The notes below the pieces were generated by a model. It saw only the letters and a program-made list of their open reading frames with translations, ran no database searches and was not told the DNA's origin. Positions 4,586-29,806 of a stretch of 40,000 nucleotides of DNA are shown here, piece after piece. Positions within the stretch are counted from its first letter, which is position 1. Every line of letters begins with the position of its first letter. The position numbers and the translations under genes were made by a program. The stretch is from Colwellia sp. (lineage in GTDB: Bacteria > Pseudomonadota > Gammaproteobacteria > Enterobacterales > Alteromonadaceae), in NCBI GenBank assembly GCA_020630795.1, contig JAHDIK010000001.1:22341-62340 (forward strand). The letters are read 5' to 3'.

Positions 4586-7018
4586 ATGAAGGGGATTTTT
4601 GTACGTGTTCCAACGAAGTTACTATTTTTAGTTGTTGGGGCGTTGTTAATTTTAAGTATTGGTTTTTCAGTACTTTCTTTATCGCGTCTGAATGCAGAGT
4701 TTAAAGCGTATCAAGCCGACACTTTAATTCAAGGTCAGCAACAATTTGCACTTCATGAACAAACTCTCCGTGACAAACTACACGTATGGTTAGAGTCTTT
4801 TGCCGACGTAGTTCATTTGAGTGAAAAAGATGATTTTACTGAATTAACAGAACAGTTATCGCTTCAATTCGATGCACTTCAACTTCACCACAATGTAGAA
4901 AATATGTGGTTAATCGATAGCAAAAAAAACATCTTATATAACTCTAGCTCTACACCTTATTATGTTTTAAATAGCGTAAACAAAACGTTAGACGTACAAG
5001 AGCCTCAGCAGCAATTGCACTGCGAATTGTATTGTGAACAACTCCTAACCGTTCCTCTGTTAAACAAGCAGGGAGATATGGTGGTTATTGCTTTATCAGT
5101 GTCTTTAGTTGATATGATTTATGCGATTAATCAATCCATTAAAAGTGAAATTGCCGTAGTAAGTTTCTCAAAGCAACCAGACGCAAAGTTATACGAAGCG
5201 CAATTTGTGTCTGCTTCAGATACCGACCTCATGCAAAGCTTGTTTATAAAGCAACAAAACAATACCAATATTGAGCAAATTAAAAAAACAGGCGTCCAAA
5301 TAGACGTGTTAGAAAATAGCTATCTTATTAATTTAATGGAGTTAGCAACTAACAATCAACGAGCGTTTTATATGGCGATTATTGATGATGTAACGCCTAT
5401 TACCCAAGAGTACAGCCAATATAGAACTCAATTTCTTTTATCAGCCATTATTATATTTTTTGTACTTGCGGCCTTGGTGTATTTTGTTTCTAGTCCAGTT
5501 ACCAAAAGATTACTCGTTCTGTCTAATGCGCTGCCACTGTTAGCAAGTAAAGAGTTCGACCAATTTAGACGTATTGAGCTTAAGCGAAACCGTTTTTTTT
5601 CTGATGAACTAGATGTTTTGTCGGACGCGTCAACAGAACTGAGTTATGAGTTAGAACAGCTTAATATTGAGATTGAACAAAAGACAAAAGAGCTAGAAAA
5701 CATCGCAATGTATGATTTGTTAACCGGTTTACCCAATCGAAATATGCTGAATTATCAATTGAGAAAATCGGTGGCAAACCTTTCTCAGTTTCAGCGTAAA
5801 GTAGCCGTATTGTTTTTAGATTTGGATGATTTTAAGAAGGTTAATGATAGTCATGGGCATGGAGAGGGTGATCGACTTCTTATCGAGGCTGCTAATCGCG
5901 TAAGGTTAAGTATTCGTAATGTTGATATAGCTTGTCGATTTGGTGGGGATGAGTTTGTTGTTGTATTGGGGCAAATAGAATCGGTACAAGAAGCAGAGCA
6001 AGTTGCGGAAGATATTTTACAGCGTTTCAAAACACCTATTAAAATAGGTAGTAGCATCTTTTATGTTTCTACCAGTATTGGTATTGCGTATACCGATGAT
6101 AAACTCATAAAAGCCGAAGAGTTAATAAGCTGGGCTGATATTGCGATGTACGAAGCGAAAGACGGTGGCGGTTCTCAGTATCACGTTTATCATCCTGAAA
6201 TGTACCAACGTGTAGCTCATCGAGTTATGTTGGAGGGAGAAGTTAGACAGGCACTTGCTAAAAATCAATTCAGTTTGAGCTTACAGCCTCAACTTGTTGC
6301 GGCAAATAAAAAAATCTATGGTTTTGAAGCATTATTACGTTGGCAGCATCCTGTTAGAGGAATGATTTCACCTGATGATTTTATTCCTATTCTGGAAAAT
6401 TCGGCGCATATGATTGAGTTAGGATATTGGATTATTAGACGGTGCTTTGAATTGGCAGTAGACATCCAAAAGCAAGGTTTAACAGGCGCTCGTATTGCAA
6501 TAAACCTATCGGCAGGGCAATTTGTTGACCAAAACTTACCGAGCTTCTTACAAGGTTTGCTTGTAGAGTTTTCATTACCTGCATCATCTTTTGAATTGGA
6601 ACTTACAGAGCAAACACTTGTTAAAAACGTTGAGCATACCATTCAAATGATGGAAACATTGAAAGGGTTAGGCTTTAGTTTTGCCATTGATGATTTTGGA
6701 ACAGGTTATTCGTCACTTGCTTATTTAAAGCAGATGCCTGTAGATGTGATTAAAATCGATAAAAGCTTTATTTTTGGTATGTTAGAAAATCACTCAGACT
6801 ACCAGATTATTATGTCTACAATCGCTATGGTTAAAAACTTAGGACTAACAGTTGTCGCAGAGGGGGTTGAAACCAGCGCTCAATTGAGAAGTTTAATGCA
6901 AAACGATTGTGATTTGATACAAGGTTACTATTTTTCTAAGCCTGTCCCAGAAGCAGAGCTAATGGACTTTATCGACAATCAAATAGTTGATAACCATTGG
7001 AAGACTCAAGCGCACTAA
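4586..7018 (+). CDS. membrane sensor diguanylate cyclase/phosphodiesterase (GGDEF-EAL)
   Basis: 810-aa ORF with two TM segments flanking a periplasmic domain and a coiled coil. The GGDEF motif (CRFGGDEFVVV) and EAL motif (YGFEALLRW) are both intact. Confidence 0.9.
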   Translation: MKGIFVRVPTKLLFLVVGALLILSIGFSVLSLSRLNAEFKAYQADTLIQGQQQFALHEQTLRDKLHVWLESFADVVHLSEKDDFTELTEQLSLQFDALQLHHNVENMWLIDSKKNILYNSSSTPYYVLNSVNKTLDVQEPQQQLHCELYCEQLLTVPLLNKQGDMVVIALSVSLVDMIYAINQSIKSEIAVVSFSKQPDAKLYEAQFVSASDTDLMQSLFIKQQNNTNIEQIKKTGVQIDVLENSYLINLMELATNNQRAFYMAIIDDVTPITQEYSQYRTQFLLSAIIIFFVLAALVYFVSSPVTKRLLVLSNALPLLASKEFDQFRRIELKRNRFFSDELDVLSDASTELSYELEQLNIEIEQKTKELENIAMYDLLTGLPNRNMLNYQLRKSVANLSQFQRKVAVLFLDLDDFKKVNDSHGHGEGDRLLIEAANRVRLSIRNVDIACRFGGDEFVVVLGQIESVQEAEQVAEDILQRFKTPIKIGSSIFYVSTSIGIAYTDDKLIKAEELISWADIAMYEAKDGGGSQYHVYHPEMYQRVAHRVMLEGEVRQALAKNQFSLSLQPQLVAANKKIYGFEALLRWQHPVRGMISPDDFIPILENSAHMIELGYWIIRRCFELAVDIQKQGLTGARIAINLSAGQFVDQNLPSFLQGLLVEFSLPASSFELELTEQTLVKNVEHTIQMMETLKGLGFSFAIDDFGTGYSSLAYLKQMPVDVIKIDKSFIFGMLENHSDYQIIMSTIAMVKNLGLTVVAEGVETSAQLRSLMQNDCDLIQGYYFSKPVPEAELMDFIDNQIVDNHWKTQAH

Positions 7019-7153
7019 TAAGTCGTTGTACAGAATTCCCAGAAACAGAGTCTGGAATAGCAAAATATCTAGTACCTATTAACGTAAAGTTAAAGGTTAA
7101 GTACATGGAGATGATGCACTTAACCTCAATTCACCTTTCTTAGTTTGTTTAAT

Positions 7154-9007
7154 CTAGAGAATTTTATTTAATAGCGCAGAAAAGTCTTCTGCATTCATAA
7201 AACCGGTCACTCTATTCTGAGTAAGCTCTTCACCTTGTTTGTTAAAAAACAAGATGGAAGGTAAGCCGAAGACCTCAAATTTACCCATAAGTTCAACGCT
7301 TTCATCTGAACCCGTGTCGGTTAAGTCTACTTGTATCATTACCGTATTTTTAAGCGCTTCTTTCACAATAGGCGCACTAAATGTGTAATGTTCAAACTCT
7401 TTACATGCAATACACCAGTCAGCATACAAATCAACCATTACCGTTTTACCCGCTTTGTTTGCATCAATAACGGCTTGCTCAAGTTCGGCAACATTTTTAA
7501 CCATTTTAAAGGTGTTTTCATGTTCCTCAGATTTAGTGTTAGCAGTACTTTGAGTGCTTACTATATTTTGAGTAGGAAAGGCTAGCTGATATGCCAGCAT
7601 AGCGCCGTAAAACATCACTAAAAATATCAGTAACGCACGTACACCATGCCAAAAATTGGCTGTCGTGTTTTTGTTTGTCACGTAAAAATAAGTTGCGGTT
7701 GCAAGTATTAATACTACCCATAACACTTGTGTCACTATCATTGGAACAATTCTGTCTAATAAGAAAATCGGTACGGCGAGTAGTAATAAACCGAAAATAT
7801 TTTTGATAATGTTCATCCAGCCGCCTGCTTTTGGTAGTAATTTACCGCCAGAGCTACCTAAAATTAATAGTGGAAGACCCATACCTAAGCTAAGTGCATA
7901 TAATGCTGATGCGCCCAGTACAATGTCTCCTGTTTGAGAAATGTAAAGTAATGCTCCTGTCAACGGAGCGGTAGTGCAAGGTGAAGCCACTAGACCAGAA
8001 ATTACGCCCATACTTACTACACCTAATACAGAGCCACCTTTTTGTTTATTGCTAATATCATTGAGCTTGTTTTGCCAGCTGCTTGGCAACGCTAAGTTAA
8101 ATACACCAAACATAGAAAGCGCCAAAAATATGAACAAAACACTCAAACCAATCAACACGTATGGATGCTGAAAAGCCGCTTGAAATTGCGCGCCAGCAAG
8201 CGCTACAACAATACCTAAAATGGTATAAGTAATCGCCATACCTTGTACGTAGAAGAACGACAACGTAAATGCTTTTTTAGTGGTTAACTCTTTCCCTTGA
8301 CCAACAATAATACCTGTTAGAATAGGGTACATAGGAAATACGCAAGGCGTAAACGAAAGCAATAAGCCGCCAATAAAAAAAGCAACCAAAGTTAACCATA
8401 AACTGTCTTGCTTAAGCATGTCTGCTAGTTGGTGTTGCTCACTTTTTTCTGCTGTTTCTGTTAAAGGTGCAGCATCGCCTGAATTGTTTTCAGTATTGGT
8501 ATCTGTTCCCGTTAATGCGCTCATAACATTTGCTTGATTCGCACTAACTTGGCTTAAATCAACGGTCTTTCTTGTAGGTGGGTAGCATAACCCTTTTACA
8601 GCACAACCTTGATATCGAATAGTTAACGTAGGGTTCGACTGTGTGCTTTCAATATCAATTGTAAATGCTAACGATTCAGTAAAAACTTTCTGAACGCCAA
8701 AAAACTCATCTTCATGATCTTCGCCTACAGGTAAAACTACCTCGGCAATGGTTGTATTTGTTGGTTTAAATTTAAATTGATGACGATAAAGGTAATATCC
8801 TTCTTCAATATCAAACGTAACTTTTAATTTATTGTCTTGTTGATGAAAATTGAAGCGAAAGGCTTCATCTACTTTTAAAAATTCATCGTCATTACTGAAT
8901 AGTGAAGGAGATGAAACATCAAAAATTGAATCTTGTGCAGTAACTTGTGTCGTTAATAAAAACAGGCTAAAAAAGCTTAGCCATAATAATGAAGTAAGTT
9001 TTCTCAT
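7154..9007 (-). CDS. dsbD: thiol:disulfide interchange protein DsbD
   Basis: 617-aa ORF with a signal peptide, a multi-TM core with Cys residues (FTPCVFPM, ASPCTTAPL) and a C-terminal thioredoxin fold (WCIACK). It overlaps cutA by 4 nt. Confidence 0.9.
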   Translation of the reverse strand: MRKLTSLLWLSFFSLFLLTTQVTAQDSIFDVSSPSLFSNDDEFLKVDEAFRFNFHQQDNKLKVTFDIEEGYYLYRHQFKFKPTNTTIAEVVLPVGEDHEDEFFGVQKVFTESLAFTIDIESTQSNPTLTIRYQGCAVKGLCYPPTRKTVDLSQVSANQANVMSALTGTDTNTENNSGDAAPLTETAEKSEQHQLADMLKQDSLWLTLVAFFIGGLLLSFTPCVFPMYPILTGIIVGQGKELTTKKAFTLSFFYVQGMAITYTILGIVVALAGAQFQAAFQHPYVLIGLSVLFIFLALSMFGVFNLALPSSWQNKLNDISNKQKGGSVLGVVSMGVISGLVASPCTTAPLTGALLYISQTGDIVLGASALYALSLGMGLPLLILGSSGGKLLPKAGGWMNIIKNIFGLLLLAVPIFLLDRIVPMIVTQVLWVVLILATATYFYVTNKNTTANFWHGVRALLIFLVMFYGAMLAYQLAFPTQNIVSTQSTANTKSEEHENTFKMVKNVAELEQAVIDANKAGKTVMVDLYADWCIACKEFEHYTFSAPIVKEALKNTVMIQVDLTDTGSDESVELMGKFEVFGLPSILFFNKQGEELTQNRVTGFMNAEDFSALLNKIL

Positions 9008-9993: not shown

Positions 9994-10010
9994 AAAAAAT
10001 TTTACAGGGG

Positions 10011-10038
10011 CTTGTGAAGAATTTTTTAGGCCCCATCT
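10011..10038 (+). promoter_or_regulatory. sigma32 (heat-shock) promoter of groES-groEL
   Basis: cttgtgaa at 10011-10018 and ccccatct at 10031-10038 match the sigma32 consensus CTTGAA ... CCCCATNT at appropriate spacing. The site is about 55 nt upstream of groES. Confidence 0.65.
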
Positions 10039-10093
10039 CTGAATCAACAAAGAATTTAAACCCTATTAAAGAAAATCGTCTCAGGAGAAAGAA

Positions 10094-10384
10094 ATGAGTA
10101 TTCGTCCATTACATGATCGCGTAATTATTAAACGTAAAGAAGTAGAATCAAAGTCTGCTGGTGGCATCGTATTAACAGGTAGTGCCGCTGAAAAATCTAC
10201 ACGTGGTGAAGTAGTAGCAGTAGGTAACGGCCGTATTTTAGAAAATGGCGAAGTACGTGCGCTAGACGTAAAAGTTGGCGACCAAGTTATTTTTAGTGAA
10301 GGCTATGGCGTTAAAACTGAAAAAATTGATGGTGAAGAAGTACTAATTTTAAGTGAAGCAGACATCTTAGCGATTGTTGAATAA
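10094..10384 (+). CDS. groES: co-chaperonin GroES
   Basis: 96-aa [37 protein letters not shown]... Confidence 0.97.
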
Positions 10385-10445
10385 TTCACACAATAAACTG
10401 ATTTCAAACGCATTGTATAAACGATGCATTAGATAGATACATTGA

Positions 10446-12107
<1,662 letters not shown>

Positions 12108-12151
12108 TCATCACCCCTTAGTTTCAGCGAAACACATGTTGTTTCAAAAGT

Positions 12152-12190
12152 CCTGTAGATGTTGTTTTTACAGGGCTTTTTTGTTTTTGG
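12152..12190 (+). terminator. rho-independent terminator of groESL
   Basis: Stem cctgta (12152-12157) pairs with tacagg (12169-12174), followed by gcttttttgttttt. Confidence 0.7.
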
Positions 12191-12332
12191 TGTTTCAACT
12201 TGTTTCACCATAACTCAACGAGTTTCATAATTTTGGGGGTATAATGTGGGGTGTTTAGTGCTTGCATGATCTCACTTTAAGGTGTTTAATTGGGGTGGTA
12301 CCCCTTAATAAACCCCTGGTGAGTTTTCCGTT

Positions 12333-13538
12333 ATGTCGCTGACAGCCCAAGAAGTTAAAAGTATTTGTTGTCCTGAAGATAAAAAGCAAATTAAAAAGTT
12401 TGATGGTAAGGGCTTATTTTTATTGATTAAAAGTAATAATTCTAAGCTGTGGAGGATGCGCTATCGGTTTTCAGGTAAGCATAAAGAAATAGCTTTAGGT
12501 CAGTACCCTGAGATACCCCTTGTTGAAGCAAGGAGGTTAGCAGAGGAGGCAAGGGTGTTACTGATGAAGGGCATTAACCCTTCAGACGAAAGAAGAGAAC
12601 GCAAACGCAGCTATTCAGTAACAGACAGACAATTTAATGTAATCGCTTTGAAATGGTGGGAGCAACAAAAAGATGCTTGGTCTGCGGATCACCAAGCACG
12701 AGTGAAGCGTTTTATCACCATTGATTGTAAATCGTTAACTTCATTGCTGATAGAAAAGATAGATGCTGGACACATTACCGAAGTCATGTTGTCTATAGAG
12801 GCTTCAGGTAGCCCTAAAAAAGCCCCTGTTATACTTTCCGTTATTAATCGCATCTTTGGCTACGCACTTGCTCATAGGCTGACGAGAAATAACCCCGCAC
12901 AAGGCTTACCACTAAAAGATATCATTAAGCCACTTAAAAAAGTTCGATCTCACTCAGCAATTATTAACCCTATAGAGTTGGGTAACTTAATTCATGACAT
13001 AGATATGACAATTTCAGGCACTTTCTGTACAGCTGAGGCACTAAAGCTTATTCCAAGGGTATTTCTTAGGCCAAAAGAAATTAGAGGGCTTAAATGGGAA
13101 TATGTTGATTTTGAGGAAAAGCTGATACGGATTCCCGCACAAGAAATGAAAAAAGACCGAGACCACCTTGTTCCGCTTTCTAAACAAGTCATTAAGCAGC
13201 TTGAATATATTTATGTTGAAACAAGATATTCACCTTATGTTTTTCCAAATAGCCGTGACAGCAGTATACCTATGAGTAAAAATGTAATGACAAATCGATT
13301 ACGAGACTTGGGATATTCGGCCGATGTTATGTCAGCTCATGGCTTTAGAAGTACGGCTTCAACAATTTTGCATGAACAAGGGTGGTCGCATGATGCGATA
13401 GAAGTGCAATTAGCTCACCTAACAGGGTCAAATACATCACGAGCATACAACCGAGCTATATATTTACCAGAGCGTAAAAAAATGATGCAAACGTGGAGTG
13501 ATTACTTAGAGGAGCTTAGTTCACAAAATAAAAAGTAA
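12333..13538 (+). CDS. tyrosine-type site-specific integrase (P4-like, N-terminal Arm/DUF4102-type domain)
   Basis: 401-aa ORF. The N-terminus (GKGLFLLIKSNNSKLWRMRYRFSGKHKEIALGQYPEIPLVEARRLAEEAR) is typical of the P4 integrase family. The catalytic region contains HGFRSTAST and LAHLTGSNTSRAYNRAIY. Confidence 0.9.
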   Translation: MSLTAQEVKSICCPEDKKQIKKFDGKGLFLLIKSNNSKLWRMRYRFSGKHKEIALGQYPEIPLVEARRLAEEARVLLMKGINPSDERRERKRSYSVTDRQFNVIALKWWEQQKDAWSADHQARVKRFITIDCKSLTSLLIEKIDAGHITEVMLSIEASGSPKKAPVILSVINRIFGYALAHRLTRNNPAQGLPLKDIIKPLKKVRSHSAIINPIELGNLIHDIDMTISGTFCTAEALKLIPRVFLRPKEIRGLKWEYVDFEEKLIRIPAQEMKKDRDHLVPLSKQVIKQLEYIYVETRYSPYVFPNSRDSSIPMSKNVMTNRLRDLGYSADVMSAHGFRSTASTILHEQGWSHDAIEVQLAHLTGSNTSRAYNRAIYLPERKKMMQTWSDYLEELSSQNKK

Positions 13539-13581: not shown

Positions 13582-14028
13582 TCACTTACTACGTATCCAT
13601 TCTTGTATATCTGATAATCGCCAACCCACATTACTGGTGCTTAGTGCGATACGAGCAGGAAACTTACCTGCACGCTCTAAACGCCAAAGGGTAGTTCTTG
13701 ATAAACCAGTAAGTGCTTGAACTTCTTTCGAACGAACAATTTTATCTTGAGCTGAATCAAAACCTTGCGGCTTGTGAGAAACATTAACAGCAGGAGCAAC
13801 TGCTTGAACTTTACCCAGTAAATAATTAAGTAATTGAAAACCAAAAAACTCGATTTGTTTTTCAGTAACTTGAATAAACTCTATTTGATGACTCGCTTGT
13901 AATTTGGTAATTTCAGCTAACGGACACCGCAAAAATAGTGATGCTTCAGTAGGTGTAAATCGTTGATATAACGATATCCCCATACTATCGGCTAGTTCAC
14001 ATAAATTGGGTGTAAACGGCTTATCCAT
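13582..14028 (-). CDS. AlpA-family excisionase/transcriptional regulator with an extra N-terminal HTH-like domain
   Basis: The C-terminus (IVRSKEVQALTGLSRTTLWRLERAGKFPARIALSTSNVGWRLSDIQEWI) matches the Phage_AlpA/HTH_17 pattern. The gene is convergent with the integrase and stops at TGA. Confidence 0.7.
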   Translation of the reverse strand: MDKPFTPNLCELADSMGISLYQRFTPTEASLFLRCPLAEITKLQASHQIEFIQVTEKQIEFFGFQLLNYLLGKVQAVAPAVNVSHKPQGFDSAQDKIVRSKEVQALTGLSRTTLWRLERAGKFPARIALSTSNVGWRLSDIQEWIRSK

Positions 14029-14139: not shown

Positions 14140-14565
14140 ATGGCATTTGCAGTTCATCTATCAAAATCAAACGAAAACTCGCTTGAAGCGCGGGTAAATA
14201 ACTTTCGTTCTGCATATGCTGCCTATCGTGATATTCAAACCAGCCAGTCACTCCACCAGCAAGCTCAAATGCAAGATACATTAGGTACAAAAGAAGAGTT
14301 AACAGAGGCTAACTCTATTATCAAGAGTAGCCTCGATATGGCTGCCAAAGACTTTAGTAAAAGTGAACTTCAAAAAGCTCAAAAGTTAGGGTTGATTTCT
14401 GATTTAGAAGTCAAAAGTATTGATGCGCTTACAATGGGTAATGACTTTACTGTTTCCCCTGCTGAACATGAGATCCAAGAGAATAAAAACCGTATAGCTG
14501 AAGCTAGAGCCTCAATGAATACTAAAAATAACGAGAAGAGCAAAGACAAAGGTAGAGATTTTTAA
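14140..14565 (+). CDS. hypothetical protein (141 aa, helical/charged)
   Basis: ORF only. Its C-terminal tail resembles the C-terminus of the island relaxase (see findings). Confidence 0.35.
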   Translation: MAFAVHLSKSNENSLEARVNNFRSAYAAYRDIQTSQSLHQQAQMQDTLGTKEELTEANSIIKSSLDMAAKDFSKSELQKAQKLGLISDLEVKSIDALTMGNDFTVSPAEHEIQENKNRIAEARASMNTKNNEKSKDKGRDF

Positions 14566-14626: not shown

Positions 14627-14755
14627 TGATAGTTAAGCCAATATTGTACATTAACTATCACGCTTTTCAGGACAACTATCACATTAATCAGGGTTAAAAT
14701 CTCATTTTTCAGGTATTAAGACACACTTTTCAGTATATAGGTTTTATTATCACAA
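14627..14755 (+). repeat. iteron array (putative oriV / rep operator)
   Basis: Four to five direct repeats in exact 21-bp phase: 14651 ttaactatcacgcttttcagg, 14672 acaactatcacattaatcagg, 14693 gttaaaatctcatttttcagg, 14714 tattaagacacacttttcagt, 14735 atataggttttattatcacaa. An inverted half-site tgatagttaa at 14627-14636 is the exact reverse complement of 14651-14660. The array lies immediately upstream of the Rep_3-type gene. Confidence 0.6.
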
Positions 14756-14816: not shown

Positions 14817-16079
14817 ATGTCCCACCAAGAAATAACTGCAATTGATTGAAATAAATCATTAGTCAGATGAAACGACTTTACTTCAGCCAGTTACACGCTT
14901 TCGCCAGATGCCCATAGAATATTAGCTGTAGCAATATCAGCCATAGCTAAAGATGATCAAAACTTTGTTACCTTTCGCATATATACCAAGCAACTTATCG
15001 ATTTTTATCCGGCACTCAAAAACGATAAAAATGCTATTGCTAGGATAGACCAAGCGACCGATTCACTCATGAGCGCTCATATCAAAATAAAACAAGTCAA
15101 TGGCTGGCTCAAAAGGCACTTAATCCATTCTTGTCAGTTTATTAAAAACAACGGCCATGCCTATGTTGATATCAAGCTCAATAACGATATGCTGCCATAT
15201 CTCATTGGCGTTAAAGGCTACTTTTCAGCACCAAAACTAGAAAATATCAAACACTTTAAAAAAGACCAGCACTTTAAACTTCATGCTTACTTATTCTCGT
15301 ATCTTTATCGTGGTACTACTGGCAATGTCAGCATTGAACAAATTCGTGAAATACTCGATATCGACAAAAAGCAATACAAATTGGTGTGACACTTAAAAAG
15401 CCGTTTATTACTGCCAAGTATCGAATTTATTAATGTCGTAACCGATATCAAAGTGACAATTAAAGACGTAAAACACGGTAGGCGTATAGCAGGGTTTAAA
15501 TTTACCATTAGCAAGCAATACAAGGACAGAGCTAAAACAACGCCAAAACAAATAATCGAGAAAGCACAGCCAACAACTACCCACATGGCGCTAGCAGAGC
15601 AATATAAAGCTATTGGTGTAAAAGCGGACGAATTCGAAAAACTAAGTAAGAAACATGAACAAACTTACCTTAAGCAATTGCTTATTTATGCTCAATACCG
15701 CACAACTAAACAAACCATACAATCAATGTTCAAGTACTTGTGCGGTGTTTTAAACAATAAACCGCAGCTAGAAGATTTATACACGCCAAATTGCCTATTA
15801 AAACAGAAACAAGCAAAACAAAAATTAGTTGAAATTCATCAACAACAAACAAGTAATCTACAAACACAAGATAAAGTAGATGAGTTTAAAGCGCTGTCGA
15901 AAAAAGTAGAACAGTACTTATTAAGCTGTTCTGAAAGTCATCTCCAAACAATAAACCAAGAATTTAGCGAACAAAGTTTTGCTACCGGGCTAACCAAGCT
16001 TTGAAAAACAGTAGACTTAAACAAAACTTATATTAAAGCCATGTATTACCTCTTTATCGCTAAACATTATCATCTATAA
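14817..16079 (+). CDS. Rep_3-type plasmid replication initiator, single frame containing in-frame TGA codons (disrupted/pseudogene under standard code 11)
   Basis: One frame runs from ATG 14817 to TAA 16077, joining track ORFs 15069-15389 and 15453-16004. The N-terminus (LVRxNDFTSASYTLSPDAHRILAVAISAI) and C-terminus (LLLPSIEFINVVTDIKVTIKDVKHGRRIAGFKFTI) fit the Rep_3 pattern. In-frame TGA codons occur at 14847, 14868, 15387 and 16002, with no TAA/TAG and no frameshift. Confidence 0.65.
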
Positions 16080-16248
16080 AGAAACAGTTTTTTTACAGTC
16101 ATGTTGTACAAATTATTTATACAGTGAGTTATGCCTTAAGTTTTCAAGTTGTAAATATTGTAACTGCTCACTAACTTACCAACCTTTACAACTAGCCAAA
16201 AACAGGCATAACTAAAAATCTTTTTGCCAAATAAACATCGTCAATATA

Positions 16249-16288
16249 ATAAGTTAGCAATAAATGATTATTTGCTAACTTATTTTTA
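16249..16288 (+). terminator. hairpin plus T-run downstream of rep (terminator or operator)
   Basis: 12-bp perfect stem ataagttagcaa (16249-16260) pairs with ttgctaacttat (16272-16283), followed by ttttt. Confidence 0.45.
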
Positions 16289-16498
16289 ATGAGCAAAAAA
16301 AAGAAGTTTTTAACCGCGATTCAAGTAGATGTTTTTAACAGCTGACTGGCAACCAACCCGCCTAAAGGCAAAAAATACCAATGATGATTAGACAAGGTGA
16401 AAGTGTATTACGACTTAGTACCATTGACTGAGCATGAACTGGCGTCGATTGTGAAGTATATTCGCATATTGAGTAGAAATAACGATAAGGATATTTAG
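16289..16498 (+). CDS. possible small protein (69 codons) with three in-frame TGA codons, including a TGA-TGA tandem
   Basis: Own translation from ATG 16289 to TAG 16496 gives MSKKKKFLTAIQVDVFNSxLATNPPKGKKYQxxLDKVKVYYDLVPLTEHELASIVKYIRILSRNNDKDI. TGA codons are at 16343, 16382 and 16385. No family was recognised. A GTG-initiated 33-codon version without TGA is an alternative. Confidence 0.3.
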
Positions 16499-16689
16499 GC
16501 TGGTTGATGGCTTGTGATACTCTCTGTGTGGCAACGATATTATGTATAAATAAGGTTTAAAGATTGAATACTTCTACCAAGCATTAATCGCATATTAAAC
16601 AGTAAGCCATGCAACCATTAAATACCTGCCATAAGCACCACCAATTGCCACCGTATATGCACTGCTATAATACTCATTAAAATTTAAAA

Positions 16690-18135
16690 ATGTTACAAGC
16701 AGCTCAATGGCTGAAAAGATCCCGGCATAAGTTCAAATTGCACCAATTTTTACGACAATTGAATAAACACCTAACCACAAACGGCCTAAAAAAACACGGT
16801 TATTTAGTCGCATCATCATGAAGTGGTAAAAGTGAGTTGATCAAGCTATTAGTTTATCGAGAACTAATCAAACCTGAACCAAAAGAGGCAGTAATATTGC
16901 TAGACCCTCATGGTGATATGGCACAAGAAATTGCGCAGTTTAACGAGTTTAGCCACACAAAATACGCTAACCGATTAGTGTTTATTGATCCAAGTTTGAA
17001 GCAAGGCTATTCACCCAGTATTAACCCGTTTCAGCTTGAATTTAAAACAGAAAGTAACATTGCCTTAATGACACAAGAGCTACTAAGTATTATCAATGTA
17101 CTCCTGCAATGATTAGGGCAATCAAATAGCTGAACACCAAACCAATGAGCCAGTACCACAAATCAAATGGACGCGATTTTAAGCCCATGTATTGCCACGC
17201 TGTTACGTTGTGGAAATAGCTCATTTTCTGACTTACAGCGCTTTATGGACGACAACAATAATGCTGATTTACTGGCTTTAGGGCAGCAATCACCTAATCC
17301 ACAACATAGGTTATTGTTCAGGCATAAATTTAACAGCCCGTTATTTAGTGCTACTAAACACGGCATTTATACCCGTTTACAAGTGATATTAAATGATCCC
17401 ACGTTTCAAAACCTGATATCCAATACCACTACCATTAACTTGAAACAGCTCATTGAAGAAAAGAAAATTATTCTTTTCAAATTATCACTCGGTAATGCCT
17501 GAAGTGATAGCGTACAAGCTTACGGGCGTTTTATTGTTGGCCTACTGCGAATTATTGCCCTGCAAAGAACCAACATAGCAGTACACAAACGCGTACCAAT
17601 ACTGCTGTTTATTGATGAGTTCCAAAACTTCATTTCTAGCGATATAGAAAAGGCACTCACACAGCTAAGAAAGTACGGTTTACACTTAATGCTAGCGAAT
17701 CAATATGTATGACAACAAATATCATCAGCACTGCAAAAAACGCTATTTGCATCAGGCGTTACAATTGCCGGAAAAAATGAAAAAAAGAGTTTAGGGTTAC
17801 TAGCTAATGAAATGGAACTTACAGTTGATGAACTTAAACAGCTAAATACTGGGGAGTTTTACCTGCAAGCAGCAAACTACCCACCGATTAAAATTAAAAC
17901 GCCTAAGTACCTGCTATGAAGCAAAAACGCTATGCCATCAAAGCATCGGTATAACTTGATAAAACAAAACTTACAACGTTATTACAGCAAACTTAAACCA
18001 CACGATGCTCATAGTGATTTAACCCACGAGATTAACAATCAAAAACATAATCAATATTATGTGAGCCAGCAACAAATAAGCCCCAATACCCAACTCGAAA
18101 ACTTACACAGTAAATACCAACTTGAATGAGACTAA
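16690..18135 (+). CDS. TraD/FtsK/HerA-like P-loop DNA-translocase-type ATPase, single frame containing eight in-frame TGA codons (disrupted under code 11)
   Basis: One frame runs from ATG 16690 to TAA 18133, joining track ORFs 16837-17112, 17167-17502 and 17932-18129. Walker A is VASSxSGKS (x = TGA at 16819). LLDPHGD and Walker B (ILLFIDEFQNF) are present, as is a MLANQYVxQ motif. TGA codons are at 16819, 17110, 17131, 17146, 17500, 17710, 17917 and 18127. Confidence 0.7.
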
Positions 18136-18959
18136 CCGAAAAACAGATCATCATTTTAGAAGCCTTGGCTCGTTTTAAATACTTAACCAGTCAACAACTA
18201 CAAATAATATTCACCAGTAAAAGTACCAGCGCTATAAATACCGCGATTAGAAGTTTAAAAGGCTTTAAATATCCATTAGTAAAAAGCTTAAGCTTTGGCA
18301 TAACCCCATGACACGGTAAATTGCCACACGTTCATTTTTTAACGTCTGCGGGTATTAAAGTTTTGGTAGAGCAGTTATCAATACCACTACAAAAAATATA
18401 CGCACCTACGCACAGAAACAGCTTTTTCCAGCGTGATTACTTTCATCGTATATCAACCGTTACCTTTAATATTTTGTTCCAGCGCTGGCTAATAAACCAA
18501 GGCCATCAACTGTATTTTTTCAAAAGTTATTTCAACCGACCAAAACATGAAAACGGCCACAAAGCTGAAACGACAATAACAAGCTGAGAATACAAATCAG
18601 AACCTGATGGCATAGGTTTATATTTCGCTAATACCCAGCCGCATTTGTTTTTATTTGAACAACATAATGGCGTAGATGCAAAGCGCGCTATAGGGCAAAT
18701 AACTCACCATTGTTACGGCTTAGCCAATGGCGCAGCGTCTGAACAATTTAAACTGAATAAGCCTTTAAAAATTTATTATGTTTTTGAGCACGAAAGCTGT
18801 TTGAAGGCAGCACTTAACTATTTTGAAAACGATAAATGACTAATGAAGTTTAGAGGCCATTTTTACTTCAAAACCAATCAAGCACTAATAAATAATTTTG
18901 CTGAACACTGGCAAATACCATGATCAGTAAATGCTAAACAATTTTGTTCACTGCAATAA
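18126..18959 (+). CDS. Replic_Relax (replication-relaxation) family protein, single frame containing four in-frame TGA codons (disrupted under code 11)
   Basis: One frame runs from ATG 18126 to TAA 18957, joining track ORFs 18126-18311, 18321-18587 and 18645-18839. The N-terminal wHTH-like region (LTEKQIIILEALARFKYLTSQQLQIIF ... GKLPHVHFLTSAGIKVL) fits the family pattern. TGA codons are at 18309, 18585, 18837 and 18921. Confidence 0.6.
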
Positions 18960-19034
18960 GTAAATTTCGTTGTTCTTAGTCTCAAAAAGCTAAGGGCAAC
19001 GGCATGTTTACTTATTGCAAAAAAGGAGCAATTT

Positions 19035-19355
19035 ATGTCGCACTTAGCCACACCTGAATTAAAAAAAATATTCGAAAACTACCCGTTTTACTCGCAAGAA
19101 AACAACAGTGACCCGTTAGTTATTGCCAAATTGTTTGATGCATACGGCAGCGCTACGTGGTATATCACCGAATATAGCCCGGTAGAAAACACCGCTTTTG
19201 CTTATGTTACTGGCCTAGCTCATGATGAATGGGGCTACGTGTCGTTAACAGAGCTTGAAAGCATCATGCTTGCGGCACAAGTGCCACGAATTGAACGTGA
19301 TATGTATTTTGAATCAGTTAAATTTAGTGAGCTGAAATTGAAAAAGGCATGTTGA
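19035..19355 (+). CDS. DUF2958 domain protein
   Basis: 106-aa ORF with a strong SD (aaggag). PLVIAKLFDAYGSATWYITEY...AFAYVTGLAHDEWGYVSLTELE is typical of plasmid/ICE DUF2958 proteins. It stops at TGA 19353, immediately followed by a terminator. Confidence 0.75.
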   Translation: MSHLATPELKKIFENYPFYSQENNSDPLVIAKLFDAYGSATWYITEYSPVENTAFAYVTGLAHDEWGYVSLTELESIMLAAQVPRIERDMYFESVKFSELKLKKAC

Positions 19356-19357
19356 TT

Positions 19358-19390
19358 AAAAAGACCAAGGAAACTTGGTCTTTATTTTGG
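19358..19390. terminator. bidirectional rho-independent terminator
   Basis: Stem aagaccaag (19361-19369) pairs with cttggtctt (19374-19382), with T-runs on both strands. It sits between convergent genes. Confidence 0.65.
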
Positions 19391-19858
19391 TGAGTCTTCT
19401 GTTTTAGCATTTGCAATTTTATTAACTAAAACAAGAGTAATAATAAAAAGTTGAATTACATTATTGATGAGCGACATCATCATTAATCTGAACGCGATAC
19501 TTTGTGCTTGAGTGGTAAAGGTGACAATGCTGGTTGCAAAAGTTATGAATAGGCACGCTATTGTGATTTTAAATAATGTAAAAAAAACTTCAGAATTTCC
19601 ATCCTCTAGCCATCGCTTAAAAAATTTATATTTTTGCAGTGAAAATAAAAACGTAGCCATAGCGGCAAGAAAGCCAAGCATAGTAAAGCTAAACCCTGCA
19701 ATTATCGTAGAAAGTGTCCGGACATCAGTAAACCCCAAACTTAATTGAAATTTGGATTTAATAAACAAATAAATGAGGCCAAGTACTACGCCTATCAGTG
19801 GTGATAGATAAGCGACTTTTTTTAATTTAGCTATCTGAGTTTTCGTCATTTTTTTCAA
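19382..19858 (-). CDS. small four-TM membrane protein (158 aa)
   Basis: ORF with four hydrophobic helices. It overlaps the upstream 325-aa gene by 23-32 nt (TTG at 19858 or ATG at 19849). No family was recognised. Confidence 0.6.
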   Translation of the reverse strand: MKKMTKTQIAKLKKVAYLSPLIGVVLGLIYLFIKSKFQLSLGFTDVRTLSTIIAGFSFTMLGFLAAMATFLFSLQKYKFFKRWLEDGNSEVFFTLFKITIACLFITFATSIVTFTTQAQSIAFRLMMMSLINNVIQLFIITLVLVNKIANAKTEDSPK

Positions 19859-26778: not shown

Positions 26779-28238
26779 TGTCAAAAATTATCAAAGATAC
26801 TTTTTCAGGCTTATTTAAGATTGGCTCGCTCGTCGCTAAAAATAAGTTGTTAGTAAAAGAAACAGGCGCAAGGTTTGCTACAGCTAAAGAGCTAGCTTCT
26901 ATTTTTTCCGGCCGAAATAAAGGCTTATTGATTGATGGGAAAAACAACCGTATTTCTCAAACAGATTCATATGAACATGTTGCGGTAATCGCTAAACCGG
27001 GTAGTGGTAAAACAACAGCGTTTATTATTCCTAACATTTTTGAACTATCAAATTCCGATTGTTCAATGATTGTGAACGATCCAAGTTCAGAAGTTTACCA
27101 ACTTACTAGCGGCCATTTGAAAGTCCAAGGTTATAGGGTTTTAAAATTAAGTCCTGATGATTTAGCGTCATCTTCTCGATTTAATCCCTTTGCGGGTTTA
27201 GATGCTCGTCATACCATAGAAATAGAGCAAGTATGCGCTGCAATCATTATGTCAAAGTACAGTACTGATAAAGAACAGCTTTGGAATGATGGTGCTATTT
27301 CTATTATGGAAATATTGGCTAAATGTTTAGCTTACAGCCAACCACATAAGCTAAACCTTGTTGAACTAAATTCGTTAGTGCAACGTTTTGGTAGTGATGG
27401 CTCCGGTTTAGATGATTGGGTAGCTGAAAATGCAGTTAATCCGTATTACCCAAATGATAAAAGCTTGGTTGAATCATGGATTGGCTTAACAACCAGTAAT
27501 GAAAAAATGCTAAGTAGCTATGTCACTATTTGTAAAACGGCATTAAAACAATTAAACAACCCCCAAGTTCGAGAATTACTAAGTTCAGATACGCTAGAGT
27601 TGGAAAGTATTCGCCAACAAAATACTATTATATATTTAAATTTTCCTGAATCTCAGCAAGCTTATTATCAGTTCATTATTGACGTATTTTACGCACGCCT
27701 TTTTACTGAGGTAATGAAAGCTAAACCCACAAAACACGAATTAGACATATTCGCGTTTTTAGATGAGTTTGGTAATTCTTATATTCACAATTTTAATACC
27801 ATCATCACCAATGTTCGAAAGTACCGAGTATCCTTATCTTTGGTGTTTCAAGGCATATCTCAACTAGAAGATAAATATGGTGAACAACGCGCCAAATCAA
27901 TAAAAGCAGGTATAGGTAGCTCATTGATATTTAAAGGCGGTGATTTAGACACCAACCAAGAGTTTGCACAAGTGATCGGTAAACGAGTGATCACGCAACG
28001 GGAAAATTTTACGAGTGTTGTTCAACAGTACAATGAACTAGATTTACTGTCTTCAGGGCAGCTTAGAACGCTAGCTGACAACCAAGCTGTTTATGTTTCA
28101 AAACATCACCATCCAACCATTGTTGAAACAGTTAACTTTTTTAATCATTCCCGTTATGCTGGTTTAGCTAAAAAACAACCCGCTCAATGTAATGAGCAAT
28201 CAATTAAACTCGATTTTGATAGTAAGTTAAGGATTTAG
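26778..28238 (+). CDS. type IV coupling protein (TraG/VirD4/TraD family), no N-terminal TM segment
   Basis: 486-aa ORF from GTG with SD gaagga. Walker A is AKPGSGKTT and Walker B is FAFLDEFGN. Confidence 0.85.
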   Translation: MSKIIKDTFSGLFKIGSLVAKNKLLVKETGARFATAKELASIFSGRNKGLLIDGKNNRISQTDSYEHVAVIAKPGSGKTTAFIIPNIFELSNSDCSMIVNDPSSEVYQLTSGHLKVQGYRVLKLSPDDLASSSRFNPFAGLDARHTIEIEQVCAAIIMSKYSTDKEQLWNDGAISIMEILAKCLAYSQPHKLNLVELNSLVQRFGSDGSGLDDWVAENAVNPYYPNDKSLVESWIGLTTSNEKMLSSYVTICKTALKQLNNPQVRELLSSDTLELESIRQQNTIIYLNFPESQQAYYQFIIDVFYARLFTEVMKAKPTKHELDIFAFLDEFGNSYIHNFNTIITNVRKYRVSLSLVFQGISQLEDKYGEQRAKSIKAGIGSSLIFKGGDLDTNQEFAQVIGKRVITQRENFTSVVQQYNELDLLSSGQLRTLADNQAVYVSKHHHPTIVETVNFFNHSRYAGLAKKQPAQCNEQSIKLDFDSKLRI

Positions 28239-28240
28239 GC

Positions 28241-28477
28241 ATGGGATTTGAATTTCAATTTATTGCATTTTATTTAATTTTTGGGTTTTCAGGATTATTC
28301 CTCGGCTGGTTTTTTAGAAATGGTATATCAATTATCGGGATAATCTTTCTAGCCTGTGTTTATCCAATTATTCAGGTTTTATCAACTATTAACGTATTTC
28401 AATTTACAATTTGCTTTTTAGCTGGTTTCTTAATCCACACATGGAAACCTATATATCATAAGTTTAAAAGCCTATGA
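28241..28477 (+). CDS. small membrane protein (78 aa)
   Basis: ORF with hydrophobic helices. IIGIIFLACVYPII resembles VAIGLLFLLFMYPVF in the next gene. Confidence 0.45.
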   Translation: MGFEFQFIAFYLIFGFSGLFLGWFFRNGISIIGIIFLACVYPIIQVLSTINVFQFTICFLAGFLIHTWKPIYHKFKSL

Positions 28478-29253
28478 GTGAGTTAATTTTTACAACCGCT
28501 TTGGTTATGTTTGCGGGGTATTTAGCAGGCAAACTATTTAAAGGTTTTAATCCTTTCTTGGTAGCCATTGGCTTACTGTTTTTACTCTTCATGTATCCAG
28601 TATTTATGGAGTCTGAAAACGAATATGTTACATACGCTATTTTTGGCTTTGGTGTGATATTGAATTTTAATCAGCCCGTATCAAGATTACGTGCTTGGTT
28701 CGCTGATTTAATGAACCTTATAAGTCTACGCCGATTTAGTGCAAGTTATGCTAATGATATTGGTGAACAAAAAGAACAAGTTGAAGCCGACTTATATCGT
28801 CAAAAACACGAAGTCGAAGAAGAAATCAGACGACAAAAGCGACAAGCTGAACAAGACATTGAACGCCAACGCAGAGAGGCTGAAGAGGCTATTCGTCGAG
28901 AAGCTGAAAATCTGAAACGTGAGCAAGAAAGAGCGCGTTCAAATAATAGTAAAAGCCAGAATAGCCAAGACAATTCTAGACAAGAAAGCAATCAAAATAG
29001 ACAAAGCCAAAATCAATCAAAAAATACTGATTCCGGCCACTTAAATCCTCAATATTTCCCCGATGCTTGTGAAGTATTAGGTAAAGGAGAAGGCTGCATT
29101 TTAAAAGAATATAAAGTTGCTTATATGCAACTTATTAAGTTGTATCACCCTGACAAAATTTCATGCTTATCTGGATCTCGTAAAGCCCAAGCAGAAAATG
29201 AAGCAAAGTTAATAAATGCTGCTTGGGATACGATTAAGAAAAAGCTTAAGTAA
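28474..29253 (+). CDS. membrane-anchored coiled-coil protein with a C-terminal J-domain
   Basis: 259-aa ORF with N-terminal TM helices, a charged coiled coil (EEEIRRQKRQAEQDIERQRREAEEAIRREAENLKREQERAR) and a Q/N/S-rich linker. The C-terminus YKVAYMQLIKLYHPDKIS...EAKLINAAWDTIKKKL carries the HPD motif of J-domains. Confidence 0.7.
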   Translation: MSELIFTTALVMFAGYLAGKLFKGFNPFLVAIGLLFLLFMYPVFMESENEYVTYAIFGFGVILNFNQPVSRLRAWFADLMNLISLRRFSASYANDIGEQKEQVEADLYRQKHEVEEEIRRQKRQAEQDIERQRREAEEAIRREAENLKREQERARSNNSKSQNSQDNSRQESNQNRQSQNQSKNTDSGHLNPQYFPDACEVLGKGEGCILKEYKVAYMQLIKLYHPDKISCLSGSRKAQAENEAKLINAAWDTIKKKLK

Positions 29254-29290
29254 ATCAAATTAAAATAATAATAAATACAAGGCAGTAAAT

Positions 29291-29806
29291 ATGTTCCATC
29301 TCTTCAAAAAGTCTCTAATAACTTTTGCTGCCATATTTCTAATGACTGGTTGTAGTGCAATGTATAAAGATCAACAAAGAGTTGATCGTATTCATCACCA
29401 ACGCGTCAGTTACACCCAGTCAATGATGAAAATTAAGTATAAATACGATAGAAACTCATACCCTGGTAGTAGTTACAAACTTTATTTGGATAATCAATAC
29501 CTTTTAACTTCAGACAAGGACAACATACTTCATTTAACAGATAAAAAATTACGTTGGAAGTTATATGAAAGTTATAAAACTAAAGGAAGGCTTTGTTTTG
29601 AAATCCGTAAAAGCAAACCGAAATATGATTTGTCACTATTTTCAGAATACAGTTGCCTTATTAATACAGAGTTAGAGAAAAAGTTTGCTGCTGACATAGA
29701 AATTGAAGAAATAGAGCAAAAAATTAAACGTTTAAAGCGACAACTGAAAAATGAAAGTGTTACTAATAACTCAAACTTTAATGCTAAAACTCAGGCTGTT
29801 CCTTGA
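29291..29806 (+). CDS. putative lipoprotein (171 aa)
   Basis: The signal peptide ends in a lipobox-like LMTGC. No family was recognised. Confidence 0.5.
   Translation: MFHLFKKSLITFAAIFLMTGCSAMYKDQQRVDRIHHQRVSYTQSMMKIKYKYDRNSYPGSSYKLYLDNQYLLTSDKDNILHLTDKKLRWKLYESYKTKGRLCFEIRKSKPKYDLSLFSEYSCLINTELEKKFAADIEIEEIEQKIKRLKRQLKNESVTNNSNFNAKTQAVP

Follow-up and report, generated by a model that had tools for sequence, protein, structure and literature searches.

We analyzed a 40,000-nucleotide window from Colwellia sp. (GenBank assembly GCA_020630795.1, contig JAHDIK010000001.1, positions 22,341 to 62,340) and found that five genes of a mobile island within it use TGA as a sense codon. As judged from gene content, the window carries an integrative mobilizable island of ~17.5 kb (~12.3-29.8 kb) located downstream of groEL. 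The island is written in two genetic codes at single-gene resolution, and it is very probable that sense TGA stands for glycine in this mixed-code element. In-frame TGA was found only in the genes for a Rep3-family replication initiator (rep, 4 codons) and a P-loop ATPase (8), in ORF3 (4), and in the small open reading frames (ORFs) o69 (3) and o122 (3). Alignments with relatives indicate that TGA is glycine at all 22 of these sites. As to where the five genes are translated, we lean toward decoding within the gammaproteobacterial host over an element that moves between two hosts with different codes.

The original prediction placed a TGA at a conserved glycine of the Walker A loop (P-loop) of the ATPase and considered tryptophan abnormal at that site. 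The sequence quoted for 16807-16836 is correct (gtc gca tca tca TGA agt ggt aaa agt gag), and the TGA is the fourth residue of the loop, A-S-S-TGA-S-G-K-S. We aligned the ATPase with 72 distant homologous proteins (≤59% identity), and 65 of them had glycine in this column. Five recoded relatives, read at the DNA level, had GGA, GGT or GGC there, and glycine is the correct reading of this TGA. In a further relative (L002), the ATPase reads ASSGS-TGA-KS, with the TGA shifted to the invariant glycine of G-K-S. A profile of 82 members of the ATPase family aligned the loop with GATGTGKS of TrwB (PDB 1gl6/1e9r), and a Walker B of the pattern hhhhDE (D309-E310) lies at 17614-17619. Thus, 16807-16836 encodes the true and only Walker A of the ATPase, and its column in the homologues is glycine, as predicted. 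The comparison that had been drawn with PGSGKT in the second coupling protein of the island holds for the motif itself, which lies one base away from the position first given (Table 1).

The rest of the ATPase gave the same picture. Five of its eight TGA columns are mainly glycine (65, 38, 70, 53 and 42 of the 72 homologues), and the other three lie in the tail or an insertion, regions in which the distant homologues are unaligned. The single TGG of the gene aligns to Tyr/Phe in the homologues. The frame of 481 codons contains eight TGA and no TAA or TAG. The chance of a TAA/TAG-free frame of this length is ~4e-12 given the local base composition, and the number of TGA codons is close to the 7.6 expected from unconstrained composition. 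With TAA and TAG excluded and TGA at its expected number, TGA is evidently tolerated as a codon in this frame.

We used a pooled codon comparison to examine all five gene families, based on the DNA of at least 15 relatives and 101 alignment columns with TGA. The 766 residues opposite TGA included 266 glycines, 64 serines, 60 alanines, 44 threonines and 2 tryptophans. Glycine was the plurality residue in 31 of the 87 informative TGA columns, and tryptophan in none (0/87). Opposite TGG we found L, F, I, R, K, A and Y. TGA was absent from the conserved TGG columns and TGG from the TGA columns, despite the two codons being one transition apart. The original prediction had considered tryptophan equally plausible at several other sites, and these did not bear it out. 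The rep site QYKLV-x-HLKSR is GGA, GGT or GGG in five relatives, residue 153 of the ATPase is glycine in 38 of the 72 homologues, and the ORF3 column in NDK-x-LMKF holds G, L, M or Q in relatives. Because no column showed an exchange between TGG and TGA, and TGA swapped with GGN codons and not with TGG, the suggested mixed origins (GGA to TGA together with TGG to TGA) can be set aside. Two more sites named as natural glycines, the tandem TGA-TGA at 16382-16387 and LGCG-TGA-PNIY at 24661, are present in the sequence as described.

A reading of TGA as tryptophan, as in genetic code 4, or as a mixture of tryptophan and glycine, would agree with the closest database proteins, P0001-P0013, which carry W at the P-loop column and at the other TGA positions. 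The DNA underlying these residues is TGA: the contigs do not yield the stored proteins under translation table 11, and the W is there because gene callers applied table 4. P0001, one of these proteins, corresponds to the gene of the window itself: its Logan contig (L001) is 100% identical to 14824-21433. Given that tryptophan accounts for only 2 of 766 residues opposite TGA, that conserved TGG columns lack TGA, and that tryptophan at the invariant G-K-S glycine of L002 would wreck the P-loop, we attach next to no weight to this reading. Residue 37 of o122 (TGA at 24544-24546), which aligns to Tyr/Phe in distant relatives, is the sole exception among the TGA columns and the only one with an aromatic counterpart.

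The boundary between the two codes follows individual genes. The five recoded genes contain 22 TGA and 46 GGN codons. In the remaining 15 genes of the island the counts are 0 and 148 (Fisher p = 6e-13), and TGA is the stop codon of five of them. Genomes and metagenomes supplied ~40 related loci, with protein identities as low as 36-58%, and these showed the same partition of genes. In the pooled loci there were 256 TGA codons in the recoded set and none in the TGA-free set within aligned regions (p = 2e-55, computed with zero for the TGA-free set, for which the raw per-locus tables show 2). These two exceptions, each a single in-frame TGA, lie in DUF2958 (L016/L120) and in p259 (L017). Apart from them, the integrase, AlpA, o141, DUF2958, MobC, putative relaxase, VirD4 and p259 genes were TGA-free across the loci, and TGA served as the stop codon of AlpA in 7 of 14 cases and of DUF2958 in 5 of 21. 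The cargo genes of other loci (Hachiman, McrBC, methylases) are also TGA-free, and they lie between TGA-rich core genes.

The chromosomal genes in the window include accC, a gene for a GGDEF/EAL protein, dsbD, groES and groEL, and later LysR, SDR and TetR genes. They contain 234 GGN codons and no in-frame TGA, and 7 of 37 ORFs end in TGA. By scanning one genome per species, we found the element in two cultured isolates. Colwelliaceae bacterium 6441 (JBFONU01) has the same order of dsbD, groES, groEL, integrase and island, with 92% identity of the ATPase, and Colwellia sp. 1_MG-2023 I2R04 (NZ_JAUOPE01) has a 90%-identical ATPase in another flanking context. The dsbD-groES-groEL-integrase arrangement recurs in ENA contigs of 82-105 kb. 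The TGA-free host genes and the synteny with Colwelliaceae identify the host as a standard-code member of that family.

These data also bear on three ways of explaining the TGA codons without a second code in the island: that the host uses TGA as a rare glycine codon, that the assembly is a chimera of Colwellia and a code-25 organism, or that the codons specify selenocysteine. The TGA codons themselves, and a tRNA near one relative (L110, below) that ARAGORN labelled SeC, would be in line with them. The codon usage and TGA stops of the host genes contradict the first. The second fails because the junctions recur in independent assemblies, in the two cultured isolates, in contigs of 82-345 kb and in Logan contig L001. 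For the third, 22 selenocysteine sites at glycine columns without a selenocysteine insertion sequence (SECIS) are implausible, and by its score the L110 tRNA belongs with the ordinary 7/5 tRNAs and not with tRNA-Sec. We consider the probability of any of the three to be negligible.

The recoded genes are under purifying selection. Between the window and five relatives, the ratio of nonsynonymous to synonymous substitution rates (dN/dS) was 0.03-0.13 at dS values of 0.3-3, indistinguishable from that of the TGA-free neighbors (rep, 0.05-0.13; o69, 0.03-0.07; ATPase, 0.07-0.11; ORF3, 0.05-0.09). None of the five genes had a TAA, a TAG or a frameshift in the ~40 related loci, down to 36-58% protein identity, and the chance probability of such TAA/TAG-free frames is ~1e-10 to 4e-12. 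TGA and GGN still exchange among close relatives. The GC content at third codon positions (GC3) was 0.34 in the recoded genes and 0.29-0.31 in the host. The low dN/dS, the intact frames and the host-like composition together argue that the proteins are made somewhere, with glycine at TGA, and by these sequence measures the recoded genes are not pseudogenes. It could be imagined that a code-25 plasmid module was captured by the island and is drifting in Colwellia as untranslatable dead cargo, and both the absence of a decoder tRNA from the window and the splitting of the recoded genes into short ORFs under table 11 would agree with this. We consider it very unlikely, given the selection between copies, the intact frames across the loci, the persistent interchange of TGA with GGN, and a composition that has fully ameliorated to that of the host.

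There were two GGA and 22 TGA codons in the five recoded genes, and the host genes use GGA for 15% of their glycines. The place of GGA among the glycine codons seems to have passed to TGA. The last sense TGA of the ATPase gene overlaps the ATG of ORF3 (ATGA, 18126-18129), and this TGA may be the ancestral stop of the ATPase gene.

How the five genes are expressed could be explained as follows. The plasmid-type core of the island (replication, the ATPase/ORF3 pair and o122) would be read with TGA as glycine, as in genetic code 25. Each large recoded gene would stop the ribosomes of the host 4-8 times, so that the core would be translationally locked in a standard-code host. Its proteins would be made only where a UGA-to-Gly decoder, a glycine-charged tRNA with the anticodon UCA, is present. 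Such a suppressor tRNA could be supplied in trans, inside the gammaproteobacterial cell, by a co-resident or helper element, and its arrival would activate replication together with the second ATPase/ORF3 module, in the manner of code-switching phages. The silence of Rep in the integrated state would then make sense. We assign this reading, a translational lock opened in a gammaproteobacterium by a UGA-to-Gly suppressor tRNA, a tentative probability of roughly 0.45; we infer both the function of the lock and the source of the decoder.

Several observations were counted in favor of decoding within the host. The recoded share is 25-38% of genes (5 of 20 island genes in the window). Recoded genes make up 26-71% in recoded phages of standard-code hosts compared to 90% in code-25 phages, and suppressor tRNAs have been detected in only ~35-40% of recoded phages (10.1101/2021.08.26.457843). 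The GC3 of the recoded genes resembles that of the host, and the one tRNA(UCA) that we found near a relative lies alongside standard-code genes. In addition, T was modestly depleted at position +4 after sense TGA, with no other context motif found.

That tRNA is located at 14-107, on the minus strand, of L110 (JGI Ga0105359), 2.5 kb upstream of a rep with 91% identity to that of the window. It is 94 nucleotides long and has an ordinary 7/5 cloverleaf with a long variable arm, and it scores 62.8 bits with the general tRNA model, above its score as tRNA-Sec. Its acceptor stem has G1-C72, C2-G71, G3-C70 and U73, the textbook identity set of bacterial tRNA-Gly. A long variable arm with U73 has elsewhere been read as Ser- or Cys-type (PMC5389517). 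A lipoprotein-like ORF (L110, 478-1485) adjoins the tRNA; it has six in-frame TGA, and 317 bp of it are 86% identical to a gene on another contig (L187, 1565-1881). That contig has 27% GC, every ORF on it is TGA-rich, and the sole named homologues of its DUF916 protein are from Candidatus Gracilibacteria. L110 also carries a TGA-free RAYT-type transposase gene and four TGA-free cargo ORFs (77 GGN, 0 TGA). The L110 tRNA(UCA), with this link to Gracilibacteria-like DNA, is a candidate for the type of decoder required. An Rfam search of the island, judged by E-value, returned noise only and no RNA gene, and prfB is not in the window.

Other findings weigh against decoding within the host. ARAGORN detected no tRNA in the window and none in the ~40 related loci with 10-kb flanks except that of L110; we saw no tRNA(UCA) near any other copy of the element. 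The L110 tRNA is a single occurrence at a contig edge, its long arm is compatible with charging by serine or cysteine, and it had no match in PLSDB, INPHARED, E. coli genomes or IMG/VR. The depletion of T at +4 comes from non-independent sites. TGA makes up 30% of the glycine codons in the recoded genes of the window and up to ~80% in L092, so very efficient suppression in competition with release factor 2 (RF2) would be needed, and the TGA stops of the host would be read through. Finally, we know of no UGA-to-Gly suppressor from Gammaproteobacteria or their phages.

Some of the same data can be accommodated by a bilingual element with two hosts, in which the recoded genes would be translated only in code-25 Gracilibacteria living on Colwelliaceae. 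The integrase, AlpA, MobC, putative relaxase, VirD4 and cargo would work in the gammaproteobacterium, serving integration, mobilization and defense of the host, and Rep3, o69, the ATPase, ORF3 and o122 would work after entry into the epibiont, where the element would replicate as a plasmid. Elsewhere, TGA is known as a glycine codon only in Gracilibacteria, Absconditabacteria and their phages, and the density of TGA fits unconstrained composition, as expected without RF2. There are two ATPase-containing modules, one in each code, and the recoded one is the plasmid replication module; in L090, similarly, a standard-code pair of ATPase and Replic_Relax genes is found beside a recoded pair of ATPase and ORF3-like genes. 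The 317 bp shared between L110 and Gracilibacteria-type DNA would also fit. An association of Gracilibacteria with Colwellia, including gene exchange, has been proposed (PMC6851277), as have phages interacting with both code-25 and standard-code bacteria (PMC10746230). However, a search of 185,579 species genomes gave no match of ≥50% identity in any metagenome-assembled genome (MAG) of Gracilibacteria or Absconditabacteria, and all long contigs with the element have flanks of gammaproteobacterial type. The GC3 is like that of Colwellia and unlike that of the Gracilibacteria contig, the depletion of T at +4 hints at competition with a release factor, and non-recoded sister plasmids occur in Vibrio, Pseudoalteromonas and marine metagenomes. 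Moreover, bidirectional DNA transfer between a diderm cell and a cell belonging to the candidate phyla radiation (CPR) has never been shown. We regard this alternative as a serious possibility, but on the whole a doubtful one. Two MAG contigs labelled Gracilibacteria (L037, L046) were tried as a yardstick for TGA usage and proved unusable, with TGA at 4-10% of glycine codons from a crude ORF picker.

The island shares features with code 25 of Candidatus Gracilibacteria and Absconditabacteria. Conserved glycine columns hold TGA, which interchanges with GGN but not TGG; the recoded genes stop only at TAA and TAG; and nearly identical DNA is found in a Gracilibacteria contig and in a neighboring gene of one relative. 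In code 25, however, TGA is sense throughout the genome and is never a stop. Recoding in the island is limited to five genes in a standard-code gammaproteobacterium, adjacent genes stop at TGA, the host and 15 island genes use the standard code, and the window has no tRNA-Gly(UCA).

Among known systems, the island works like the stop-codon recoding of code-switching phages (crAss-like, Lak and others; 10.1101/2021.08.26.457843), which are likewise mobile, have standard-code hosts and carry in-frame stops in only part of their genes, here 5 of 20. In these phages a suppressor tRNA is the presumed switch and is often undetected in the element. The island differs from them in the amino acid (they recode TAG to Gln or TGA to Trp), in the kind of element, in the recoded functions, which are replication and DNA processing and not lysis or structural genes, and in its tie to Gracilibacteria. 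Scans of the window proteins with Pfam and NCBIfam found no virion or packaging domains, and in this respect the island is not a phage. Dual-host phages (PMC10746230) resemble it in that a mobile element possibly crosses the boundary between code 11 and code 25, but those phages avoid TGA and are readable in both codes, whereas the island has one set of genes that needs TGA as glycine and another that needs TGA as a stop.

The gene content resembles that of the helper-dependent element SGI1: an integrase, a replication initiator, MobC, a putative relaxase and VirD4 are present, mating-pair-formation genes are not, and replication is presumably off while the island is integrated. Activation of SGI1 by a conjugative helper is transcriptional. 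The lock proposed here would differ in acting at the level of the genetic code, and there is no sequence relationship between the two elements. To our knowledge, the only mixed-code genomes known so far are those of phages in which TAG is recoded to Gln or TGA to Trp, and a full-text literature search found no paper describing genes with TGA as glycine in a proteobacterial mobile element.

These findings mean that a conserved, plasmid-derived integrative family in cultured marine Gammaproteobacteria keeps a subset of its genes in a glycine code. If decoding occurs within the host, there would be a natural UGA-to-Gly suppressor system in Proteobacteria that acts as a translational lock on replication. 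If the element instead commutes between a bacterium and its code-25 epibiont, the genetic code would serve as a host-specific expression switch and DNA would move across the code boundary that separates a CPR epibiont from its host, which would be categorically new. With at least two of the carriers available as cultured isolates, either reading can be tested directly. Current annotation misses the element family or shows it wrongly, since gene callers break up or mistranslate the recoded genes and table 4 puts tryptophan at catalytic glycines.

Table 1. Features of the mobile island, with positions in the window and the first nucleotides of sense TGA codons
Feature	Position	Strand	Basis and remarks
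P4-type tyrosine integrase, island left end	12333..13538	+	NCBIfam NF007246, 5e-60; TGA-free
AlpA-family regulator	13582..14028	-	Pfam Phage_AlpA on orthologues; TGA-free, TGA stop
o141, 141-aa ORF, function not assigned	14140..14565	+	TGA-free; conserved beside alpA
Iteron-like 21-nt direct repeats, putative oriV	14653..14735	.	Repeat families D1, D4, D7
rep, Rep3-family replication initiator (WH1+WH2), 420 aa	14817..16079	+	Pfam Rep3_N 1.4e-18, Rep3_C 1.3e-13; sense TGA at 14847, 14868, 15387, 16002
o69, 69-aa ORF, function not assigned	16289..16498	+	Sense TGA at 16343, 16382, 16385
Soluble TrwB/VirD4-superfamily (DUF87) P-loop ATPase, 481 aa	16690..18135	+	Pfam; 8 sense TGA, at 16819, 17110, 17131, 17146, 17500, 17710, 17917, 18127
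In-frame TGA at Walker A position 4, read as Gly	16819..16821	+	Homologue columns, recoded relatives, TrwB alignment
ORF3, 277 aa, weakly Replic_Relax-like	18126..18959	+	Sense TGA at 18309, 18585, 18837, 18921
DUF2958 protein, 106 aa	19035..19355	+	Pfam PF11171, 6e-14; TGA-free, TGA stop
Standard-code cargo: RexA, RexB-like membrane protein, RhuM, HsdM_N fragment, WYL protein	19382..24084	-	Pfam
o122, 121-aa ORF, function not assigned	24439..24804	+	Sense TGA at 24544, 24661, 24724
MobC/NikA-like relaxosome accessory protein	25099..25479	+	Pfam MobC, 3e-06
Putative relaxase	25476..26528	+	Position only, between MobC and VirD4 in all loci; TGA-free
VirD4-like coupling protein	26778..28238	+	NCBIfam NF045973, 6e-62; TGA-free, 26 GGN, PGSGKT at 26997-27014
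DnaJ-domain protein (28474-29253) and 171-aa ORF (29291-29806, TGA stop)	28474..29806	+	

The ATPase matched the Pfam families T4SS-DNA_transf (PF02534; 28.6 bits, cut-off 20.1), DUF87 and TraG-D_C above their cut-offs. Its Walker A, Walker B and Pfam matches are those of the TrwB/VirD4 coupling proteins and the HerA/DUF87 ATPases, and it is no more than 31% identical to curated plasmid proteins. Unlike TrwB and VirD4, it has no N-terminal membrane anchor, as a Kyte-Doolittle scan found no hydrophobic, transmembrane segment. We considered whether the anchor had been lost in the recoded ATPases and rejected this, since the long standard-code relatives lack it too. ORF3 stayed below the threshold of PF13814 (Replic_Relax), scoring 14.7 bits where 25.3 are required (E=0.034).

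Of the smaller recoded genes, o69 is conserved with TGA in at least 11 loci, and o122 directly follows DUF2958 in relatives that lack cargo. The iteron-like repeats lie upstream of rep in a non-coding stretch that is conserved at 75-85% in related loci, and they are a probable oriV. In domain architecture (WH1+WH2) and adjacent iterons, the initiator corresponds on sequence to the iteron-type Rep_3 class.

The nearest standard-code relatives of this module are plasmid-like contigs of ~7.6 kb (L125-L131) that encode Rep, an ATPase of ~600 aa and an ORF3 homologue and are TGA-free. They form, together with L133 and L137, a non-recoded sister lineage, in which L127 and L131 resemble permutations of one 7591-bp circle. 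Close standard-code proteins also came from Vibrio vulnificus and Pseudoalteromonas. At 398-486 aa, all recoded ATPases are short, without the N-terminal domain of 160-200 aa found in their standard-code relatives, and in a rough neighbor-joining tree (all W masked) they fell in one or two clades among the standard-code forms. There was no relative by DNA among curated plasmids (PLSDB) and phages; plasmid proteins reached at most 31% identity, INPHARED gave one protein match (34% identity), and IMG/VR had no relative above 27% identity.

The island begins with the integrase, the AlpA gene on the minus strand and o141, continues with the repeats, rep, o69, the ATPase, ORF3 and DUF2958, and after the minus-strand cargo ends with o122, MobC, the putative relaxase, VirD4 and the DnaJ-domain protein. 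The features of an integrative mobilizable element that we identified are the integrase, MobC and VirD4, with a putative relaxase that had no Pfam or NCBIfam match; there is no VirB4-type gene in the island. A search for att repeats flanking the island found only chance matches of 12-13 nucleotides. The stretch from 28474 to 29806 is the probable right part of the island, and p259 homologues follow VirD4 in L013-L017, L122 and L132. In several Colwelliaceae the island lies directly downstream of groEL (12107-12333 in the window) and not at a tRNA gene; the integrase has this position also in L010, L107, L111, L114 and L115.

The standard-code genes show their use of TGA in several ways. DUF2958 would extend 139 codons further under code 25. 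The TGA stop of MobC overlaps the ATG of the next gene (ATGA, 25476-25479), and MobC ends in TGA in 10 of 10 loci. The defense or cargo block, located between DUF2958 and o122, has no in-frame TGA, and its RexB-like protein ends in TGA-TGA. This block is absent from L013-L017, and some relatives have other cargo.

Two relatives show further arrangements of recoded and standard-code genes. L090 has a standard-code 910-aa ATPase and a Replic_Relax protein at 4815-8451, and a short, heavily recoded ATPase (15 TGA, 11 GGN) with an ORF3-like gene at 10001-12147. The standard-code protein encoded directly after the ATPase matches PF13814, and BLAST found no similarity between it and the ORF3-like protein; only the two ATPases are detectably related. 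In L092 (1960-6561), the ATPase gene has 15 TGA and 4 GGN, and a gene for a 563-aa protein has 21 TGA; these genes adjoin a TGA-free Hachiman system (HamA and a helicase). A TGA-rich homologue of the 563-aa protein, ~570 aa long and without a Pfam match, is present in L002, L090 and L091.

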